Of a stretch of 64,000 nucleotides of DNA, positions 856 to 59,747 are shown piece by piece. The notes under the pieces are model-generated. The model searched no databases, had not been told where the DNA came from, and was given only the letters and a program-made list of their open reading frames with translations. Position 1 is the stretch's first letter, and every line of letters begins with the position of its first letter. The translations under genes and the position numbers were made by a program. This DNA is from an uncultured virus (IMG/VR IMGVR_UViG_3300011871_000032) (taxonomy: Duplodnaviria > Heunggongvirae > Uroviricota > Caudoviricetes): IMG/VR virus record IMGVR_UViG_3300011871_000032. One strand, written 5' to 3'.

Positions 856-1103
856 GTTATCTCCAGTTATTTAATTTAGAACGATATTGTAACAATAAGC
901 TTAGTCATTATCAATAAAAAACTTACTTTATTATTTTATATCCAAAGTATTCACTGCAATAAAAAATATTAATTTTAAAATATTTTACAATCAAATTGAC
1001 CGCTCATAACTTTTTACATGAAGTTTTACACTGATCTATTGATTTAATTCAGTATATTTATTAGGTTGTTTTTATCATATTGGATTTATGTAAGGAAATA
1101 GAA

Positions 1104-1685
1104 ATGAAAGCTTTTAAAATAAATAAAAAAGGATTTAGTTTATTAGAATTACTTTTAGTTTTATCAATAATTGCAAGTCTTATTGTAGCAGCTTTTTTGA
1201 TTTACAAGAAAGTAGATACAAGTAATAAAATTGAAAAAGAAAGAAATAATATATCATTGATAGTATCAGCAACAAAAAGTCTTTTTGCCGGAAAAGTAGA
1301 TTATGAAGGATGGTCTTTAAAAACTTTAGATAATGCCAACCTACTTGCTGATAACTTTATTTATAATAAAGCGACTAATGATGATTTTGGTCAATATAGA
1401 GATGCTTGGGGAAATGAGGTTAATACAGGAACAATAACACCGGGCAATGGTTCTGTTAAAATAGCTGGAGTTTCTTTAGAATATGTTATTCCATCAGAGG
1501 CATGTGTGAAATTTGTATCTTCTGTATTTCCATTAATGGATCGTATAGATGTTAACTATTCTAATATAAAAGATACAACAGTATCTTATATTGACGCTAC
1601 CAAAATAGATGTTTCAGCAATTTCTACATCTTGTGGAAACTCTTCTTATGGCGATTTAAGCACTGTTTCATTAACTTTTTATTAA
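1104..1685 (+). CDS. Type IV (IVb, PilS-like) prepilin
   Basis: Class III signal KKG|FSLLELLLVL, hydrophobic helix, C-terminal Cys pair (EAC...TSC); AAGGA RBS before ATG 1104. Confidence 0.85.
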   Translation: MKAFKINKKGFSLLELLLVLSIIASLIVAAFLIYKKVDTSNKIEKERNNISLIVSATKSLFAGKVDYEGWSLKTLDNANLLADNFIYNKATNDDFGQYRDAWGNEVNTGTITPGNGSVKIAGVSLEYVIPSEACVKFVSSVFPLMDRIDVNYSNIKDTTVSYIDATKIDVSAISTSCGNSSYGDLSTVSLTFY

Positions 1686-2361: not shown

Positions 2362-2398
2362 TATAAATCCCCACCTTTATAATCAATAATATTTTAAT

Positions 2399-2469
2399 TT
2401 GTATGATAGGATTTGAACCTACACCTCCCTAGTCTTAACAGGGGCGCAATACCGTTATGCTACACTACA
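2399..2469 (-). pseudogene. Degenerate tRNA-like element (possible AAG loop)
   Basis: T arm GTAGG-TTCAAAT-CCTAT, D arm, bulged acceptor, loop TTAAGAC, no CCA. Confidence 0.5.
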
Positions 2470-2477
2470 AATTAGAA

Positions 2478-2565
2478 TGGTGTCTCAAGAGGGACTTGAA
2501 CCCTCACGCCCATTACAGGCACTGGCATCTTAAACCAGCGTGTCTACCAATTCCACCATCAAGAC
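2478..2565 (-). tRNA. tRNA-Leu(AAG)
   Basis: Full cloverleaf with long variable arm; anticodon arm CTGGT-TTAAGAT-GCCAG; A73 and encoded CCA. Confidence 0.85.
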
Positions 2566-2570
2566 ATAAA

Positions 2571-2748
2571 GGCAATTTTCGGTTATTCTTCTTCGCTTCT
2601 CAACGAAATAGAATAACCTAGCTGCGTGGAAAGTGTGAACACTATAACATCAATGTCAGGAACTTTCTATGTGTTTCGCCAAAACACATCCAAGAATAGC
2701 GCCGCAGACTTCCAGACTTACCTGCAGATAAGAACTGGCATTCTCTAG
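2571..2748 (-). ncRNA. Candidate structured ncRNA inside tRNA cluster
   Basis: No ORF; several stems (GGTTATTCT/AGAATAACC, ATGTGTTT/AAACACAT, CTGCG/CGCAG, GAAAGT/ACTTTC). Confidence 0.45.
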
Positions 2749-2749
2749 T

Positions 2750-2821
2750 TGTTCAGTACTGGATTCGAACCAGTCTCATTGGAGTTCTCTCCGCTCGATA
2801 TACCACTAATCGCACCTGAAC
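2750..2821 (-). ncRNA. tRNA-like RNA with collapsed anticodon loop
   Basis: Acceptor GTTCAG/CTGAAC, D stem CGAT/ATCG, T arm ACTGG-TTCGAAT-CCAGT; anticodon arm GGAG-AGAA-CTCC. Confidence 0.6.
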
Positions 2822-2830
2822 ATTATTGTT

Positions 2831-2895
2831 AGCCTGTTAGTTCCCGCTCATCTGGAACTCTTCCCCTTTCGGTTGAGAGCACTATTTAACAGGCT
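2831..2895 (-). ncRNA. 65-nt branched RNA abutting a CCA end
   Basis: Closing stem AGCCTGTTA/TAACAGGCT, CC-GAAA-GG and AGTTCC/GGAACT hairpins. Confidence 0.45.
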
Positions 2896-2971
2896 TGGTG
2901 GAGGTTATCGGAATCGAACCGATCAAGGTGCTTGAGTTACAAACAGAGCTGCTTAGCCAAGACTGACCCCC
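2896..2971 (-). ncRNA. tRNA-like RNA with alanine identity (G3:U70, A73, CCA) and no canonical anticodon arm
   Basis: GGGGGTC...ATCGG-TTCGATT-CCGAT-AACCTCC-A-CCA. Confidence 0.6.
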
Positions 2972-3010
2972 ATTAAAACAGCTTTTATACTGTATTATCG
3001 CTAATACAAC

Positions 3011-3226
3011 TTAAAGGCTGTTAGATCTACAAATTACTTGCATTACATCTGAACTACTTTCTTTCAATACATATGTTGGATTACCTTCATACTTAATACA
3101 ACGTTCTGTATACGATTTTAACTCTTGATTTGTTAATGGTTGCTGCTTAGGCAACAACATAAAACTGAAAATAAATAATGATAATAAGGACAAAAATATT
3201 ACATTATTAGATTTTAATGTTCTCAT
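3011..3226 (-). CDS. Small membrane-anchored hypothetical protein
   Basis: N-terminal TM, Cys pair, GAGGTG RBS. Confidence 0.65.
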   Translation of the reverse strand: MRTLKSNNVIFLSLLSLFIFSFMLLPKQQPLTNQELKSYTERCIKYEGNPTYVLKESSSDVMQVICRSNSL

Positions 3227-3242
3227 TTTATCACCTCGTTAG

Positions 3243-3361
3243 TGGCCTTTGCTGGATTCGAACCAGCGCAAAGTAACCCAATACTTAAAAGTTAACGCTT
3301 TAAAATAAGGGTTTTAACGCACTACCCGCTGGTAGCTGCTCTCCCGCTGAGCTAAAAGACC
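3243..3361 (-). ncRNA. 119-nt tRNA-like RNA with non-canonical anticodon loop and ~50-nt extra arm
   Basis: Acceptor GGTCTTT/AAAGGCC, D stem GCTC/GAGC, GCTACC-AGCG-GGTAGT, long AACCC/GGGTT hairpin, T arm GCTGG-TTCGAAT-CCAGC. Confidence 0.7.
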
Positions 3362-3367
3362 GAAATT

Positions 3368-3556
3368 TGGAGCCGCATTAGGGAATCGAACCCTATCAGT
3401 CAAAAGTAACCACCCGATTACTGCTTAAAAATCTAAGCTTAAGTAGATGCCTCTACCGACCTATTTGCAAACCAATCCATACTCACGAGATACTTATGTA
3501 CAATTTTCACCCGCTTTCTTTCGCAAAATGATTTGGAGTCGAACCAAACCACGGCT
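3368..3556 (-). ncRNA. 189-nt CCA-ended double-T-loop RNA, family A copy 1
   Basis: AGCCGTG/TGCGGCT-CCA closing stem, two TTCGA hairpins; paralog at 5447..5635. Confidence 0.75.
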
Positions 3557-3632
3557 TGGTGCATTCGGAGGGATTTGAACCCCCGACACCCGGATCTTCA
3601 ATCCAGTGCTCTACCAACTGAGCTACAAATGC
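3557..3632 (-). tRNA. tRNA-Phe(GAA)
   Basis: 76-nt cloverleaf, loop TT-GAA-GA, CCA. Confidence 0.9.
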
Positions 3633-3737
3633 ATTTCATGAAAAACATAATAACAACTTTTTGATTAAAGTACAACTGTTTTTTCGTATTTTTTATCATA
3701 TGCTAAGGATTTTTTACATCTGCCTTAGCAATGATAG

Positions 3738-4265
3738 TTAAATAGCTGATAAAGATAATTTTTGCTTAAGATATTCTTCACATAGTTTAATTGTAAAGTC
3801 TTTAGGCATTTGTCTTTTCCAATAATCAAGATTACGTAATGTTTCTTGAGCTGCTTTTTCTATTGCCCAAATATTTATATTTGAAGCACAGATTAATACT
3901 TTATTAAAACAACGCTGATCATGATAAATATTTAAATAGGGAATAGAGTGTTCTTTTGGCAATTCTCCCCATGTAAATATTTTTACAAACATCGGAACAT
4001 TTGTCTTAAAAAGACGCTCAAGAAAAGACAGTAATTTAGTATCGCTTAAATTACGGACACTTTTATAATTTTCATCCGTTTCAAGCTCAATAGTTATTAA
4101 TGATCGATCTATATCAATTTTAATTGGCCTGAAAGAAATCTTTGTATCCCATACTTCTTGATATTCCTGAGTTTCTAAGGCTTTTTGAATACCTTCTTTT
4201 AAAGATGAGCACATTTCATCTACTCTAAGATATTTCTTTTTCATAATATTAATAATATTCTCCAT
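3738..4265 (-). CDS. Hypothetical protein
   Basis: 175 aa ORF. Confidence 0.65.
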   Translation of the reverse strand: MENIINIMKKKYLRVDEMCSSLKEGIQKALETQEYQEVWDTKISFRPIKIDIDRSLITIELETDENYKSVRNLSDTKLLSFLERLFKTNVPMFVKIFTWGELPKEHSIPYLNIYHDQRCFNKVLICASNINIWAIEKAAQETLRNLDYWKRQMPKDFTIKLCEEYLKQKLSLSAI

Positions 4266-4268
4266 TAT

Positions 4269-4403
4269 TTTACACGACAGGACTTGAACCTGCAGCCTAC
4301 TTTACGGATAATCAGCAGTATACGGCCTTTCTCCAACCAGATGTTTTTTACGGGGCGTTTCCCCATCATAGTCTGGTGACGTTCTACATTGAACTACGCA
4401 TAA
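4269..4403 (-). ncRNA. 135-nt tRNA scaffold with a large structured insertion replacing the anticodon/variable region
   Basis: Acceptor TTATGCG/CGTGTAA, D stem GTTC/GAAC, ACCAGA/TCTGGT enclosing GGGG-AAACG-CCCC, T arm GCAGG-TTCAAGT-CCTGT. Confidence 0.7.
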
Positions 4404-4487
4404 TGGTGCATAGTGAAGGATTTGAACCCCCGGCGCGATTCCACGGCTTTGCCCACGAATCCGCTCTACCAACTGAGCTAACTATGC
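4404..4487 (-). ncRNA. tRNA-like RNA with extended anticodon arm (15-nt loop)
   Basis: Perfect acceptor GCATAGT/ACTATGC-A-CCA, canonical D and T arms; GATTC-GTGGGCAAAGCCGTG-GAATC. Confidence 0.75.
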
Positions 4488-4541
4488 AATGAAAGTATTA
4501 TACTTATTTTCAGTTTTAAGTACAATACTTTTTACTATTTT

Positions 4542-5057
4542 TTAAGCTTTTATTTTAATTTTACTGCTTATCTCATCTACTTCACCCACGAGTTCGAAAA
4601 GTAGATTATTGATACCTTCTTTTCTTTTTAGCTTTCTTACTATTGCTGGCACTAATTGTTCTTTTAAGGCTAACTTATAACTTTCATTTTGAGATTTTAA
4701 AATTTTCTCTATATTATGGTATAAATTATGCGAATTTAAAATACGTCTAATGTTTTCTCTCATTCTTTCTTCTATAACAATATCAATAGTTTCCTCAACT
4801 ATTTTTTTCGCTAACTCTTCTTTTTCTTGCATTGATAGGCTTAGTATCCTATTAATTACTAAATCTACAAGAATATCATAGAGGTCATCTATCTTTATTT
4901 TAGCATTAAATGGCCTATATTGCTCAAAACAGTTTTCCTCTAATAAATCTTTTTCAGTAAAATATTTATCTACATCATCTTTATTAACAAAAAAATCGCA
5001 AGCATTCTCATGCAACATTTCTTTTAATTCGTTAAAAATTCTTTCTGAGCTTTTCAT
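4542..5057 (-). CDS. Hypothetical protein
   Basis: 171 aa ORF, GAGG RBS. Confidence 0.7.
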   Translation of the reverse strand: MKSSERIFNELKEMLHENACDFFVNKDDVDKYFTEKDLLEENCFEQYRPFNAKIKIDDLYDILVDLVINRILSLSMQEKEELAKKIVEETIDIVIEERMRENIRRILNSHNLYHNIEKILKSQNESYKLALKEQLVPAIVRKLKRKEGINNLLFELVGEVDEISSKIKIKA

Positions 5058-5109
5058 TTTTTACCTCATTTCAATGTAAAAATCCCAGCCCGAAGACTGA
5101 GATTTTATA

Positions 5110-5292
5110 TTATAAATCACCATAGTTTGAGATAACTAACCCTTGTTTAACTTCATAGATTTCCATTTCTGTATCAGGACTATAGTTATATTGAGTTTTC
5201 ATCAACTCCCTTGCGGAAGCTTCATCTTTCTCAATAACTACAATATTACCAGCCCAACCAAAATCAACAACAAACACTTTTAAATCATTCAT
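5110..5292 (-). CDS. Small hypothetical protein
   Basis: 60 aa, AGGAG RBS, terminator after. Confidence 0.7.
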   Translation of the reverse strand: MNDLKVFVVDFGWAGNIVVIEKDEASARELMKTQYNYSPDTEMEIYEVKQGLVISNYGDL

Positions 5293-5365
5293 AAAAATCT
5301 CCTATGTTAAGTTAATTTTTTAGCATAGAAAGATTATGAATTTTTATCATTACAATGTTTTATTT

Positions 5366-5441
5366 TGGTGGCCCTTGTTGGATTTGAACCAACGACCAAT
5401 CGATTATGAGTCGACTGCTCTAACCACTGAGCTAAAGGGCC
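5366..5441 (-). tRNA. tRNA-Ile2(CAU, lysidine type)
   Basis: GGCCCTTTAGCTCAGTGGTTAGAGCAG..CTCATAA..; closely resembles enterobacterial ileX/ileY. Confidence 0.9.
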
Positions 5442-5446
5442 AAAAT

Positions 5447-5635
5447 TGGAACCACAAGGCAAACTACACCCTTTCAGTCAAACATAATCACCAGATTATG
5501 AGGATATATCAAACTTCCATATATCCTTTGGTAGATGCCTCTACCAGACCTATCTATTTGATCCACGAGGTACTTATGTACACTTTTCTCTCACTTCTCT
5601 TTATAGATCATTCGGAATCGAACCGAACAGTGGTT
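5447..5635 (-). ncRNA. 189-nt CCA-ended RNA, family A copy 2
   Basis: AACCAC/GTGGTT-CCA; shares TGTACATAAGTA, GGTAGAGGCATCTAC and TTTGACTGA with copy 1, with compensatory changes. Confidence 0.75.
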
Positions 5636-5639
5636 GTTG

Positions 5640-5726
5640 TGGTACCTGAGACGAGACTCGAACTCGTACAACCGTAAGGTCGAGGGATTTTAAGTCCCTT
5701 GTGTCTACCTATTCCACCACTCAGGC
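5640..5726 (-). tRNA. tRNA-Leu(UAA)
   Basis: Cloverleaf, loop CT-TAA-AA, long variable arm, CCA. Confidence 0.92.
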
Positions 5727-5824
5727 ATAAAGAGCATTCTCATGCTCTCATCTACGTTCACTTTTAATCAAACTTAAAGGTACTTCAATGAAAACCCCAA
5801 TTCATCAAACAATAAGGAGATTTC

Positions 5825-5900
5825 TGGTGCGCCATGCTGGATTCGAACCAGCGACCAATAGCTTAGAAGGCTACTGCTCTATCCACTGAGCTAACAGCGC
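5825..5900 (-). tRNA. tRNA-Arg(UCU)
   Basis: Cloverleaf, loop CT-TCT-AA, CCA. Confidence 0.92.
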
Positions 5901-5910
5901 ATTACTGTCT

Positions 5911-5956
5911 TCGTTTCGATGAAGTAATAATAGCAAAGAGCAGAATGAAGTACAAC
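5911..5956 (-). promoter_or_regulatory. Sigma70-like promoter of tRNA module
   Basis: TTGTAC-17-TATTAT then CATCGAAACG; similar at ~7941-7985 and ~8981-9025. Confidence 0.6.
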
Positions 5957-6066
5957 TTTTTTTTACTTTTTCTCTACTGTTTGCAGATTTTTTAAGCTAT
6001 TTAGCGAATTTTACATCTATTTTTACGAAACAAATAAAAAAGCCTCTTAGAGAGGCTTTTATTTGA

Positions 6067-6495
6067 TCAGATAGATGGTCTTTTGGGTTTTGGAGCATCT
6101 TCATTTGAACGATCTTTAAATTCAAGATACTGACCTAAATAACTGTAGATTTTTTCTTTCGCAATAGGATTTTGAGAATGAACGAAAAAGTTAAAATCCT
6201 TTGGCAAGAAAGATGGATCATCCATATCTTTTTCCACCAACCATTTTGCCAAATCTACACCTTCAAGCTCTCTCATTAAATCATTATCAAAAGAAATGAA
6301 GTTAGGGCAACCATTACGTTCAATGTAATCAATAGCTCCTTCAACAGTGGTATTTACAACGAGTTCACTGTTATATACTTTTTCCAACAGATCATCAGCC
6401 CCAATCAAAGGGTAGTAATAACGTGGATGCCTGATTTTATCAGGATGGAAAGCATCATCATCCAAAAACATAAATACACTTTTCTTTTCAGTCAT
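6067..6495 (-). CDS. Cyclic-phosphate processing receiver-domain protein
   Basis: Motifs FLDD, ISFDNDL, G-x-DLAKWLVE, VHSQNP typical of this receiver-like family. Confidence 0.75.
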   Translation of the reverse strand: MTEKKSVFMFLDDDAFHPDKIRHPRYYYPLIGADDLLEKVYNSELVVNTTVEGAIDYIERNGCPNFISFDNDLMRELEGVDLAKWLVEKDMDDPSFLPKDFNFFVHSQNPIAKEKIYSYLGQYLEFKDRSNEDAPKPKRPSI

Positions 6496-6565
6496 TTTCT
6501 TATTTCCATATCTTAAAGGTGATATTATATTACTATATTCTAATATTAAGATCAACCATTTAATG

Positions 6566-7084
6566 CTACATAAAACATTCTTCGCTTGAACTTCTTATCA
6601 ATAAATCTAAAATCTTTTTCTTTGTAAGTTCTGGAGAATGATGTCCAAAGATATGCGTTTCTCTTAAAACATCTAAAAAATCTTCTACAAAATCATCTTT
6701 TTCAAATCGTAGTTTTTTTATGAAATTATTTTTTAGCATTATATTTTTTTCATAATAAGTTTTATGGTTTATACCATTACCATCATAAATAATATCATTA
6801 TGAATAATCGCTATATGATCTATTCTTATAATGTCATTAAGAATAACCGAGTTTAGAGCTTCTTTTGATTTCTTGTCGATTATTTTGTTAATTTGAATTT
6901 TATCCCATTCTTCTTCATAAAAAATAAAAAGAGCAAATTCTACAAAACCATTATTCTTCATAAAGAAAGGTGTGAGATAATTAGCAAGGTGAGAACAACC
7001 ACCATTTAAAAAATAGTGCTTTGCATTCGCATCTTTTTTTATAGCATTAACGATTTTTTCAATCTCAAAGATGAATTCTTTCAT
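6566..7084 (-). CDS. Hypothetical protein, possible Cys-His-Asp papain/transglutaminase-like fold
   Basis: FLNGGC..A, HI, YDG motifs; similar to 34304..35038. Confidence 0.55.
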   Translation of the reverse strand: MKEFIFEIEKIVNAIKKDANAKHYFLNGGCSHLANYLTPFFMKNNGFVEFALFIFYEEEWDKIQINKIIDKKSKEALNSVILNDIIRIDHIAIIHNDIIYDGNGINHKTYYEKNIMLKNNFIKKLRFEKDDFVEDFLDVLRETHIFGHHSPELTKKKILDLLIRSSSEECFM

Positions 7085-7183
7085 TTTAGTCTCACTATAG
7101 ATAGAAGGTTTTTATTTTAACTATATAAATCGTTTTTAGAATAACAAAAAAGGACATGGCATGTCCTTTTTTAATTGTTTTAT

Positions 7184-7256
7184 AAAAATCTATCAAGAAT
7201 CGAACCTGATAACTTCATCTTATGAGGGCGCTGTTTTACCAATAAACTAAGATTTT
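7184..7256 (-). pseudogene. Degenerate tRNA(CAU)
   Basis: T arm and D arm, loop CT-CAT-AA, mispaired anticodon stem, AU-rich acceptor, no CCA. Confidence 0.5.
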
Positions 7257-7350
7257 TATAAAACTTATTAATAAATCATAAAACAATCTTCTATTGATTA
7301 CAATATTTTTATCTATTTTTTCCATAATTTATTAGAACAAAAGTAATCTT

Positions 7351-7426
7351 TGGTGGCCCCTGTTGGATTTGAACCAACGACCAATCGATTATGAGTCGAC
7401 TGCTCTAACCACTGAGCTAAGGGGCC
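7351..7426 (-). tRNA. tRNA-Ile2(CAU)
   Basis: ileX-like cloverleaf, CCA. Confidence 0.9.
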
Positions 7427-7429
7427 GAA

Positions 7430-7602
7430 TTTAGAGAATGTTGCAGCATTCTCCATTAGTCTCTTGCTAACGTCAATCTGTTTCGCTCGCTATACAGATA
7501 AATAGCACACAGGAGGACTTAAGCTTATCAATTATTTCAAATTAAACAAAATGAACATATTACTACTTCATTTAAAAATGTTTAATCCCGATTGATCACG
7601 GT
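7430..7602 (-). ncRNA. Structured ncRNA, family B copy 1
   Basis: Paralog of 8576..8749 with compensatory stem changes and invariant loop CATATTACTAC (plus strand). Confidence 0.65.
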
Positions 7603-7655
7603 GCCTACATTAATCAAACGTTAAAACAACCACAACACTACCACCACGTAGAGTT

Positions 7656-7742
7656 TGGTACCTGAAGTGGGATTCGAACCCACAAGCCCGTTACGGGCGG
7701 GAGATTTTAAGTCTCCTGTGTATACCATTCCACCATTCAGGC
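7656..7742 (-). tRNA. tRNA-Leu(UAA)
   Basis: Cloverleaf, loop CT-TAA-AA, CCA. Confidence 0.92.
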
Positions 7743-7833
7743 ATAAAAGAGTGGGAGAACACTCTTTAATTAAATGAAAACTTTTAGCAGTACTTTTATT
7801 CACAATCACAACAACACATAGAGGAGACTATGC

Positions 7834-7909
7834 TGGTGCGCCGTGCAGGATTCGAACCTGCGACCAATAGCTTAGAAGGCTACTGCTCTATCCACTGAGC
7901 TAACAGCGC
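7834..7909 (-). tRNA. tRNA-Arg(UCU)
   Basis: Cloverleaf, loop CT-TCT-AA, CCA. Confidence 0.92.
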
Positions 7910-8027
7910 ATTTATCATTTTAATCAATTACTTAGTGCTTCGTTTCAATGTGTTTATAATACCTAAAACCTTTATGAAGTACAACTCTTTTTTCAATATT
8001 TTGTTTATTTATTTTTTCTGTTTTTAC

Positions 8028-8312
8028 TTAATCTAAACGAATTGATGGATTAAGGAAAGGCGGATTACAGACGCTTCCTGATACTTCTTTATTTCCCGGA
8101 TCACGAGCTGTAAAGCTTGTTACTCTTTCGTGTTTAGCACATTTAAAGATATTTCCAGATGAAACTTTAACTTGTGTATAACCTTTATCTTCTAGAAAAG
8201 ATTTAGCTGTATCTTGCCCTGAAAAACAGTGGAAATAAATCGAGCCACTGAATATTGCAGCACCAATTATAAACAGCGGAATGTTTCCTGATTTTGTTTT
8301 ACGTTGAGCCAT
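8028..8312 (-). CDS. Membrane-anchored hypothetical protein
   Basis: N-terminal TM, C..FTA..G.VC pattern of a common small phage family. Confidence 0.7.
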   Translation of the reverse strand: MAQRKTKSGNIPLFIIGAAIFSGSIYFHCFSGQDTAKSFLEDKGYTQVKVSSGNIFKCAKHERVTSFTARDPGNKEVSGSVCNPPFLNPSIRLD

Positions 8313-8341
8313 TTCAAACCCCTTTTTACATTTATTTATTT

Positions 8342-8428
8342 TGGTGCCTCAGACCAGACTCGAACTGGTACAACCTAACGGTCGAGAGATTTTAAGTCTC
8401 TTGTGTCTACCTATTTCACCACTGAGGC
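8342..8428 (-). tRNA. tRNA-Leu(UAA)
   Basis: Cloverleaf, loop CT-TAA-AA, CCA. Confidence 0.92.
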
Positions 8429-8496
8429 ATTTAAGAACATTGCGAGTGTTCTTAAACTACAACCCGTAAAACTAAGCGCAGAGGATCGAAGTCTGC

Positions 8497-8572
8497 TGGT
8501 GGCCCCTGTTGGATTTGAACCAACGACCAATCGATTATGAGTCGACTGCTCTAACCACTGAGCTAAGGGGCC
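8497..8572 (-). tRNA. tRNA-Ile2(CAU)
   Basis: Matches 7351..7426. Confidence 0.9.
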
Positions 8573-8575
8573 GGA

Positions 8576-8749
8576 TTTAGAGAATGCGCCAACATTCTCT
8601 ATTAGTCTCTTCCTAATGTCACCCTGTCTCGCTCACTATACAGGTCAATAGCACAAAGGAGGTACATCGAGCTTATTAATTATTTCAAATTAGATATAAT
8701 GAACATATTACTACTTCATTAATGCTACCTAATCCCGATTAATCACGGT
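8576..8749 (-). ncRNA. Structured ncRNA, family B copy 2
   Basis: Paralog of 7430..7602. Confidence 0.65.
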
Positions 8750-8823
8750 TATGAACAAATGTCTACACAATAAACCACGAACAGCACTACACACAACAAA
8801 CTACACAAAACAAGCGTAGGGGT

Positions 8824-8900
8824 TGGCACGTTGTATAGGATTCGAACCTATGACCTACGGCTTAGAAGGCCGTTGCTCTATCCAACTGAGCTAACAACGC
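8824..8900 (-). tRNA. tRNA-Arg(UCU)
   Basis: argU-like cloverleaf, loop CT-TCT-AA, G73, CCA. Confidence 0.92.
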
Positions 8901-9122
8901 ATTATGTTATTACTATACCATTTTACTTCATTCAGTACAAATCTTTTTTATCTAACTTTTTGATACTTAAGAATATATCTCGTTTCGATGAAGTTATAAT
9001 AGCAAATCAGATCATTGAGTACAAGTCTTTTTTTAATGTTTTTAATCAATAGATTGTTTTTTGATCATATTGCGTATTTTACTATCTTTTAGCTACAAAA
9101 AAGCCGCTTTTCGCGGCTTTTC

Positions 9123-38317: not shown

Positions 38318-38425
38318 AATAGTTTCCAATAAGATTGTTTATATATTGTCATTATAATGAAGGTAAAGATTAAGTACAAGCTCTTTAACAAAAAAGACCG
38401 CATAGCGGCCTTTTATTTTTAAAAT

Positions 38426-57975: not shown

Positions 57976-59634
57976 TTATCTTACGCATATAGCATATGCT
58001 GTGAAGCAACCAGCATCGTTACCACCCGGAGGATTTACTATAAATCTGTTATTCACAACATCTGGATAAGATGTATCTGGAGCGTTTCGTCCATCATCAT
58101 CTCTCCATTGACTTAATGCATATCCACCACCAGTTAGCTTGTATCCAGCAGGACAGTTAGCATATGATGGTAGTCTACCATCACCACCACATCTGGATGG
58201 TCCATTTGTTCTTATAACTTCACCTATTCCAGCAGAAGCCCAAACACCACTAACACATGATAATATTGAACCTGCAGCATCTCTACCTTGAAGACCATTA
58301 GGTGAACATCCAGCACCAGCAGTGGCTACGCCATTTATTTGAACAAATTCACCAGATGTTAATCTTCCTCCTGATGATATATTTCCAGAAGCTGTAATAC
58401 TCCCTGAGCTGTTTCCATCTCCTCTAACAGATAAGTCTCCAAGGTTATCTTGACGCCCCCATACTTGAAGGCGTTGTTCATTTGATAAACCACCCGATCT
58501 CCATAAAGTTAATGGTTTATTTGAACCTAATCTGAATTCGTAGTCATTGGCATCACCACCACCTATAACATACGTATCTCCACCACCATTATGACCAATA
58601 ATCTGACCACCTGCTGTTATATTGCCTCCAGTGCTTAAAGCTCCACCGATAGTGCCATTACCAGAAGCATATACTCCACCTGTAATATTAACTGTATTTA
58701 AGTCACCTCTATTACTGTTCATATGAATAGATAGTGGTTTGTCCTGCATCATTTTTATTTCATAATCATTCGCCCCAGCATCTCCACCTAAACCTATAAC
58801 ATCTCCATACCCATTTTTTGCCCAAACCCAATTACCAGCAGTTATTGCTCCTGTTGAGTTAATGTTATTATTTACTTGTAAAGCTCCTTGTAAGGTTGTT
58901 GAGCCTCCAATACTTAGATTTCCAGCGGCAGTTATATCTTTAGCATTGTTAATGCTTTGACCACCCATATTTAAGTTTCCAGTCATAGGAAGAGTACCAT
59001 CACGGCGCAAATAAACAGAATACATTGCTGAGTTAAATCCTGTTCTATAAGCAAGTAAGCCATCTCTTGTTATATTATTAAAATTAGTTGAGTTCTCTGT
59101 CCATTGGGAATTATATCCAGATACTGATGTTGCTGATTTTGAAACACCACTATCTATTCCTGCAGATTGCATAGCTTTACCTAATAAATCATAACGAATT
59201 GCACCACCTTCTATCCAAGCAGCAGAGGTAGTTATTAAACCATTTATTAAATAATTAGGAGATGTTCCTGATCTTTTGAATATTATTTTGTAAGGAGAAC
59301 GAAAAGAGTTAGTATCCTTATAAGTTGTAGGCAATAAACCTTCATTAACTAATGTTGCTACTGTTATTTCACATCCAGATGCATTACATGTTCTTGGACC
59401 CGGATCTGTTGATTGACTAGAACTTGATGTTAATGTTGATAGTTTATCATATCTTATATTTATATACCCATTTACAGCATCTCCTATTTGCCTAATTTGT
59501 TGACCTACAGCAGATGCTACGACATTTTCCTGTTCATTTCTCATGTCCTGAAATTTAATAAAAGTAATCATAGTGCCTACACCAAGCACTAATATTAATT
59601 CCAATAGAGAGAAACCTCCTTTCTTCAACTTCAT
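57976..59634 (-). CDS. pilV: PilV-like (shufflon-type) type IVb pilus tip adhesin
   Basis: KKGG|FSLLELILVL, PilV-like constant region, Gly-rich repeats, C...G..LSCVSGVW junction, Cys-rich C-terminal domain. Confidence 0.8.
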   Translation of the reverse strand: MKLKKGGFSLLELILVLGVGTMITFIKFQDMRNEQENVVASAVGQQIRQIGDAVNGYINIRYDKLSTLTSSSSQSTDPGPRTCNASGCEITVATLVNEGLLPTTYKDTNSFRSPYKIIFKRSGTSPNYLINGLITTSAAWIEGGAIRYDLLGKAMQSAGIDSGVSKSATSVSGYNSQWTENSTNFNNITRDGLLAYRTGFNSAMYSVYLRRDGTLPMTGNLNMGGQSINNAKDITAAGNLSIGGSTTLQGALQVNNNINSTGAITAGNWVWAKNGYGDVIGLGGDAGANDYEIKMMQDKPLSIHMNSNRGDLNTVNITGGVYASGNGTIGGALSTGGNITAGGQIIGHNGGGDTYVIGGGDANDYEFRLGSNKPLTLWRSGGLSNEQRLQVWGRQDNLGDLSVRGDGNSSGSITASGNISSGGRLTSGEFVQINGVATAGAGCSPNGLQGRDAAGSILSCVSGVWASAGIGEVIRTNGPSRCGGDGRLPSYANCPAGYKLTGGGYALSQWRDDDGRNAPDTSYPDVVNNRFIVNPPGGNDAGCFTAYAICVR

Positions 59635-59747
59635 TTGTTTCACCTTCGACTAAATATAATGTATATGTTTCATTTATATTATATTTAATCAAAAACTCAA
59701 CTTTTTTGTTTTAAAAAACTAAATAAAGTAAAATGATTAGTATTCCT

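Follow-up and report, generated by a model that had tools for sequence, protein, structure and literature searches.

Additional stable RNAs have long been recognized in phage tRNA clusters, and to our knowledge none of them has an assigned function. For RNAC and RNAD of T4, a trans-acting role through the binding of a partner has long been supposed. In E. coli, 3'ETS-leuZ is an sRNA sponge derived from a tRNA-precursor spacer, an example of a processing by-product that is able to act in trans. The roles of RNAC (species 1, rnaC) and RNAD (species 2, rnaD) are given as unknown (PMC3014915, PMC9697503), and GOLLD and ROOL are presented as structured RNAs of unknown function from phages and prophages, often found near tRNA islands (PMC12286853).

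The window analyzed here is the whole 64,000-nt stretch of IMG/VR record IMGVR_UViG_3300011871_000032, in which the RNA is read as the minus strand. An earlier note on this DNA had reported two diverged paralogs of a structured RNA (family B) directly 5' of tRNA-Ile2. Both copies are present where it placed them, on the minus strand and 82.1% identical (147/179 aligned positions), and a tRNA-Ile2(CAU) begins 3 nt past the 3' end of B1, and likewise of B2. These two downstream tRNA(CAU) genes are identical in sequence and resemble enterobacterial tRNA-Ile2. Both copies match R1, a covariance model built from four close sequences, and lie among their neighbors as follows.

7427..7606, minus strand: B1, family B copy 1, conserved core of about 180 nt (R1, 205.6 bits, and alignments)
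8573..8753, minus strand: B2, family B copy 2, conserved core of about 181 nt (R1, 208.5 bits)
7351..7426, minus strand: tRNA(CAU), Ile2-like, downstream of B1
8497..8572, minus strand: tRNA(CAU), Ile2-like, downstream of B2
7656..7742, minus strand: tRNA-Leu(UAA), upstream of B1
8824..8900, minus strand: tRNA-Arg(UCU), upstream of B2
7607..7655, minus strand: 5' flank of B1, G/U-rich, with a small hairpin CUAC..GUAG; not alignable between types
8754..8823, minus strand: 5' flank of B2, with a weak terminator-like hairpin at 8819-8801

Like RNAC and RNAD, family B consists of small non-coding RNAs encoded in a phage tRNA cluster, on the same strand as the tRNAs, and B2 and a distant copy in another viral record (G003, described below) directly follow tRNA-Arg, as rnaC and rnaD do. 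The T4 genes are nevertheless no homologs of B: there is no blastn match to B among 50,697 phage records (nor among 72,556 plasmids), and model R2 does not match rnaC or rnaD (L050:1909-2172, E<=10). T4 rnaC also has a T-arm-like CCGGGUUCGAAUCCCGG, which is missing from B and has a counterpart in another element of the window (family A), and RNAC folds far better than its shuffles (z -4.6), whereas B does not. GOLLD and ROOL resemble B in their position near a phage tRNA island; unlike them, B has no Rfam match, measures about 180 nt rather than >500-800 nt and offers no evidence of multimers, the only palindrome in its loop being AUAU (AAUAUU in G003). With 3'ETS-leuZ, B would share an origin as a by-product of tRNA operon processing, which for B is our proposal, but B is long and elaborately folded and has no target complementarity beyond chance in the window. 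By analogy with RNAC/RNAD or GOLLD/ROOL, B is most likely a stable RNA cut from tRNA precursors. The family is new, while its kind, the tRNA-cluster RNA, is already known. Overall, we put at roughly 60% the probability that family B, found in a small lineage of giant phage-like replicons with AT-rich DNA, is a genuine, uncatalogued gene for a structured non-coding RNA, predicted to yield a stable trans-acting product.

ARAGORN identified 15 tRNA genes in the window, all on the minus strand and 14 of them within 2397-8900. The G+C content of the window is 28-34%, and most of its ORFs are without a family; those that could be assigned include a MutS-like protein, an NMN-adenylyltransferase-like protein and a 5'-nucleotidase. 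B lies on the tRNA strand within tRNA operons, which begin with a predicted sigma-70-like promoter motif a short distance before tRNA-Arg(UCU). The window has seven matches to this motif, TTGTAC-N16-18-TATWRT, where 0.26 would be expected; all seven are on the minus strand, and six of them fall in the tRNA cluster, before tRNA-Phe, tRNA-Pro and three tRNA-Arg genes. From these predicted signals we infer that B1 and B2 sit within two promoter-to-terminator tRNA units.

3647-3675, 4497-4525, 5927-5955, 7956-7984, 8912-8940, 8996-9024 and 38351-38379, minus strand: matches to TTGTAC-N16-18-TATWRT
7956..7984, minus strand: promoter-like TTGTAC-N17-TATTAT, head of the unit Arg-Leu-B1-Ile2-tRNA
8912..9024, minus strand: two promoter-like motifs (8996-9024 and 8912-8940), head of the unit Arg-B2-Ile2-Leu-ORF
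7145..7173, minus strand: terminator-like hairpin of 13 pairs with a T run, end of the B1 unit

Other features were recorded in and around the cluster. A cREC_REC protein (6067-6555, minus strand; E 1e-16), whose receiver domain is tied to cyclic-phosphate RNA processing, is encoded inside it. At 3243-3361 (minus strand), an Rfam tRNA match of 41.5 bits over 119 nt, which ARAGORN did not call, may be a tRNA-like gene interrupted by about 45 inserted nt. At about 2730-3000 (minus strand) there are further pieces shaped like tRNAs, which contain GGTTCGATTCC or GGTTCGAATCC, have CCA-like ends and were called by neither tRNA tool. The window also encodes a PilS/bundlin-type pilin with an N-methylation motif (1080-1685, plus strand) and a tail-collar-fiber-like protein that ends in a Shufflon_N segment (57976-59643, minus strand).

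An Rfam scan and a homolog search had both been suggested by the earlier note. In the scan of the window only tRNA reached the gathering score (16 matches), and B corresponded to no Rfam family, at gathering thresholds or at E<=10; the best scores inside B, 23.4 and 14.2 bits, belonged to unrelated families. A 21-kb stretch of the window likewise had no match among the plasmids. Among the records compared, the nearest was G001, a viral record of 341,648 bp that has 35% of the window's sampled words in common with it and carries orthologs of both B1 and B2, so the duplication happened before G001 and the window diverged. When viral, genome and metagenome collections were scanned for exact patterns, the only additions were near-identical strains, namely two metagenome contigs, one identical to B2 (L089) and one equal to B1 with two changes (L074). 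In viral contigs, one pattern gave two loci, both in G001, another gave five loci, three of them chance matches in GC-rich coding DNA, and further patterns led to G001 and G003 only; all 35 loci from genome contigs were chance matches by blast check, and 2 of the 27 loci from metagenome contigs were true (L089, L074).

Synteny provided a route to more distant relatives, as two further viral records, G003 (259 kb) and G004 (135 kb, 64% complete), encode 69% identical homologs of the 5'-nucleotidase beside the tRNA cluster. Model R1 detected one distant homolog in G003 (75.4 bits, E about 1e-16), which lies behind the same promoter motif, between tRNA-Arg(UCU) and tRNA-Leu(UAA), and is 58.5% identical to B1 and 55.8% identical to B2. 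We found no further copies of B in the window, G001 or G003, none in the 64% complete G004, and none in G002, a 458-kb record with the shared cREC-like protein. When the G003 copy and its flanking tRNAs were compared to phage records, the tRNA parts alone matched (best cover 39%), and a scan for the promoter motif returned one unrelated record (G005), which is without B. Searches for a terminase (PF03237) in G001 and for relatives of a 611-aa protein of the window yielded nothing.

The fold was derived from six sequences of three lineages, aligned with MAFFT blind to structure and then analyzed with RNAalifold, which returned five helices (P0/P1, P2, P3, P5 and P7). These make up a three-helix arm (P0/P1, internal loop, P2, bulge, P3, loop), then P5, a small hairpin whose AUAG..GCGA loop is conserved, and the 3' hairpin P7.

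7523..7599, minus strand: domain 1 of B1, comprising P0-P1, an internal loop (CG / GAAAUA), P2, a 5' bulge, P3 and the 11-nt loop GUAGUAAUAUG at 7556-7566
8671..8746, minus strand: domain 1 of B2, loop at 8704-8714 (alignment and pair counts)
7476..7499, minus strand: hairpin P5 of B1, AUCUGU-AUAGCGAGCGAA-ACAGAU, with the conserved loop motif AUAG..GCGA (2/6 pairs changed on both sides)
8622..8645, minus strand: hairpin P5 of B2
7432..7455, minus strand: 3' hairpin P7 of B1, stem GGAGAAUG/CAUUCUCU, variable loop, ending 5 nt before the tRNA
8578..8601, minus strand: 3' hairpin P7 of B2

Across this alignment 98.3% of 240 cells are paired, compared to at most 45% in slid controls. Both sides have changed in 15/40 pairs, a count that none of 500 shuffles reached (mean 4.5) and that was at most 2 in the slid controls; these counts rest on three independent lineages, which are too few for a formal statistic such as R-scape. 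An alignment fitted to the model gave the same covariation picture, and domain 1 of the G003 homolog, folded alone, takes the same architecture as that of B1 and B2. The four compensated helices described in the earlier note all hold as minus-strand RNA: between B1 and B2, P1 reads AUCAAU/AUUGAU vs AUUAAU/AUUAAU, P2 reads GGAUUAAACA/UGUUUAAUUU vs GGAUUAGGUA/UAUCUAAUUU, a base pair in P3 is A-U vs U-A, and P5 reads AUCUGU/ACAGAU vs (A)CCUGU/ACAGG(G).

That note had also said that the differences preserve pairing. To compare this with chance, we took the structure from one copy alone and re-placed the substitutions at random. With the structure of copy 1 (its centroid), pairing was preserved beyond chance, as copy 2 contains five compensated pairs (0.70 expected, P=0.0003) and six broken pairs (11.9 expected, P=0.012). 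With the structure of copy 2 the result was weak (two compensated pairs, P about 0.15, not significant), because in the fold of copy 2 the register of P1 is shifted. Folding energies were no better than those of shuffled sequences (z from -0.26 to -1.2) and were unremarkable for either strand (-0.74, -1.17, -1.21).

The pairing pattern also points to the strand. On the tRNA strand 248/252 cells pair, 29 of these as G-U, compared to 219/252 on the other strand, and this G-U pattern indicates that the tRNA strand is the RNA. It likewise bears on the idea that the conserved unit acts as DNA, with its inverted repeats serving as a protein-binding or recombination site, or with TTGACG-N17-GAGAAT serving as an internal promoter for the downstream tRNA. 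A promoter scan does mark TTGACG/GTGACA-17-GAGAAT in both copies (7476-7448 and 8622-8594), and the tRNA modules have clearly been rearranged. However, DNA symmetry would not require a strand-specific fold such as the G-U pairs create, the region holds 12 promoter-like matches where shuffles lead one to expect 15.5, and the TTGACG-N17-GAGAAT block lies in a dispensable linker and is absent from the G003 homolog. We therefore regard an element acting at the DNA level as very unlikely.

Within the fold, helices and loops are conserved in different ways. In P2 (GGAUUAAACA / GGAUUAGGUA / GGGCUGAGCU) and P3 (AAUGAA / AGAAAG) the pairing is conserved and the sequence is not, while the sequence itself is conserved in P1, the internal loop (CG opposite GAAAUA or AAAAUA), the loop core UAAUAU and the P5 loop AUAG...GCGA. 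The 11-nt loop and further segments that had been described as invariant are so between the two copies of the window, but not beyond them: among the G001 orthologs the loop is GUAAUAAUAUG in one copy and CGGGA has become CGGGG in the other, and of these motifs the G003 homolog keeps only UAAUAU, CG and AAAUA. We also considered an outer helix pairing CCUCCU with AGGAAGAG and dropped it, as it contains C-C and A-C cells in the B1-type sequences and is absent from G003. CCUCCU itself resembles an anti-Shine-Dalgarno sequence and was located in both copies.

7511..7516, minus strand: CCUCCU, anti-Shine-Dalgarno-like, in B1 (in five close sequences, not in the G003 homolog)
8657-8662, minus strand: CCUCCU, anti-Shine-Dalgarno-like, in B2

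Its retention in the five close sequences (as ACCUCCUU in B2) would fit a decoy or regulator that pairs with the ribosome-binding sites of mRNAs. We consider such a function highly improbable for the family, since the G003 homolog has a shorter, unrelated linker at this place and the motif is thus no defining part of B.

The 3' hairpin stands apart from the rest. P7 covaries but is not specific to B, as it is a generic pre-tRNA leader hairpin of the tRNA cluster: equally strong hairpins end 3-5 nt ahead of each of the three tRNA-Leu(UAA) genes, so that 5/16 tRNAs examined have one, including the two Ile2 genes behind B.

5730-5749, 7746-7767 and 8429-8457, minus strand: tRNA-Leu(UAA) leader hairpins of 8-11 bp, 3-5 nt before the tRNA, P7-like

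This part of the family B element may therefore be a tRNA-processing feature instead. No intrinsic terminator (a G+C-rich hairpin with a U run) was predicted at P7 or within the B cores, the only one, a weak one, being in the 5' flank of B2.

The leader hairpins raise the question of whether the whole of B might serve its neighbors in cis, as a spacer whose fold aids the maturation or folding of adjacent tRNAs (for example a landing site for RNase E or RNase P, or an insulator against misfolding) and which is degraded after processing with no trans role. Its place inside the tRNA precursor, the shared type of 3' hairpin and the small hairpin in the 5' flank right after the upstream tRNA are what such a spacer might look like. 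The evidence on the other side comes from where B does and does not occur. Each genome has only one or two copies beside at least 14 clustered tRNAs, and the tRNA that follows differs (Ile2 in the window, Leu in G003, where B lies between tRNA-Arg(UCU) and tRNA-Leu(UAA) and is thus not tied to Ile2). The same tRNA-Ile2 is elsewhere preceded by family A or, in relatives, by ORFs, and a mere spacer needs no sequence-conserved loops. The occurrence of Ile2 without B and of B before tRNA-Leu speaks against a cis function specific to a single tRNA, and together with the copy number makes a purely cis role less likely; we judge it unlikely, if conceivable.

The slot before tRNA-Ile2 was examined across these records. 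In the window it holds B twice and family A once, the latter before the first tRNA(CAU) (5442-5639), where the sequence is different, as the earlier note had said, and R1 gave no match at E<=10. Between tRNA-Arg and tRNA-Ile2, an extra module of G001 has a 48-aa ORF (L051:6747-6893), and G003 (L107:12074-12235) and G004 (L108) have a 53-aa Cys-rich ORF with a ribosome-binding site. Hence the proposed "exchangeable RNA cassette position" is sound in that the slot 5' of tRNA-Ile2 is variable, but the slot is not specific to RNA and B is not bound to Ile2. The position before tRNA-Ile2 in these replicons is a hot spot for RNA genes and tiny protein genes alike. As for family A, its elements at 5442-5639 and 3362-3556 (minus strand) are about 69% alike and have a T-arm-like hairpin (GGTTCGATTCC) at the start or end, which recalls the T-arm-like 3' part of T4 rnaC.

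The rate of change is less telling than its pattern. The B1 core differs from its G001 ortholog at 8/180 positions, compared to 28/132 in its two adjacent spacers (Fisher P=8e-6), and the B2 core at 13/180, compared to 19/133 in neighboring spacers (P=0.058, borderline). The pooled cores (21/360, 5.8%) are not significantly below third codon positions (95/1157, 8.2%; P=0.17), so the case for B rests on covariation, not on rate. Outside the cores, the 5' flank of B1 shows 21% substitutions and 11 gap columns relative to G001, and the G/U-rich flank that separates the core from the upstream tRNA is barely alignable between B1 and B2. Coding potential was examined as well. Stops occur in all frames of B (7427-7655, which is B1 plus its 5' flank, has 12 in frame 1), and no ORF of at least 20 aa is common to the three types (B1, B2 and G003). 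A neutral duplicated spacer, or a small gene that has decayed and lost its function, could account for the pooled rate and would be in keeping with the small ORFs that fill the slot in relatives. It would not account for 15/40 compensated pairs across copies that are 56-82% identical, and the stops in every frame and the lack of a common ORF do not favor a former gene; we consider this explanation extremely improbable.

We also turned to public sequencing runs. The stretch was found in 20 runs listed, from 11 studies, and six of these runs are on record as RNA, of which we examined four, each from a different study (4 of 11 studies). In these four libraries the depth was flat across the ORF, the spacers and the DNA upstream of the promoter, contigs of 204-293 nt covered B1, and contigs ended about 30 nt inside the repeated tRNAs; flat depth and contig ends at the tRNA repeats make these libraries uninformative on transcription and RNA ends. 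The DNA at 7427-7655 was found in runs labeled freshwater, marine, gut, air, soil and mouse, including RNA libraries.

Considering the fold kept in a homolog of 56-58% identity, the absence of a shared ORF, the strand pattern of the G-U pairs and the lack of an Rfam match, the suggestion that B is a second class of non-coding RNA in this cluster is supported. For the stable, trans-acting RNA that we favor, a route can be proposed. B would be transcribed as part of a polycistronic tRNA precursor. Cleavage by RNase P at the 5' end of a tRNA is established in bacterial tRNA maturation, and such a cut at the downstream tRNA, together with 3' maturation of the upstream tRNA, would free B. The 3' hairpin P7, 3-5 nt before the tRNA, could then shield the new 3' end from exonucleases, leaving a stable product of about 180-230 nt. 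This RNA would work in trans, with its unpaired motifs of conserved sequence as the likely contact sites for a partner, most probably a protein or a second RNA. As both close genomes keep two diverged copies, dosage or divided roles are suggested.

The 11-nt loop had been put forward as a possible antisense seed. It is only partly conserved, as noted above, and no sequence complementary to it in the window exceeds chance expectation. More generally, no antisense target or partner for B exceeded chance within the window, where the longest exact antisense match was 13 nt (E 0.17).

Family B is convenient for pull-downs, deletion and structure probing, being short, with a simple covariation-supported fold, two paralogs and a distant homolog, and its constrained and free parts are clearly separable. 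A bolder and more doubtful version of the trans-acting reading is that B is an abundant phage RNA, cut from tRNA precursors, that uses its invariant internal loop and its loop motifs to capture a factor of the host or the phage. The captured factor would be, for example, a translation, RNA-repair or anti-phage defense protein, and B might also pair with itself through its AU-palindromic loop. If this is true, B would be a tractable small model for the RNAs of tRNA islands, such as T4 RNAC/RNAD, GOLLD and ROOL.
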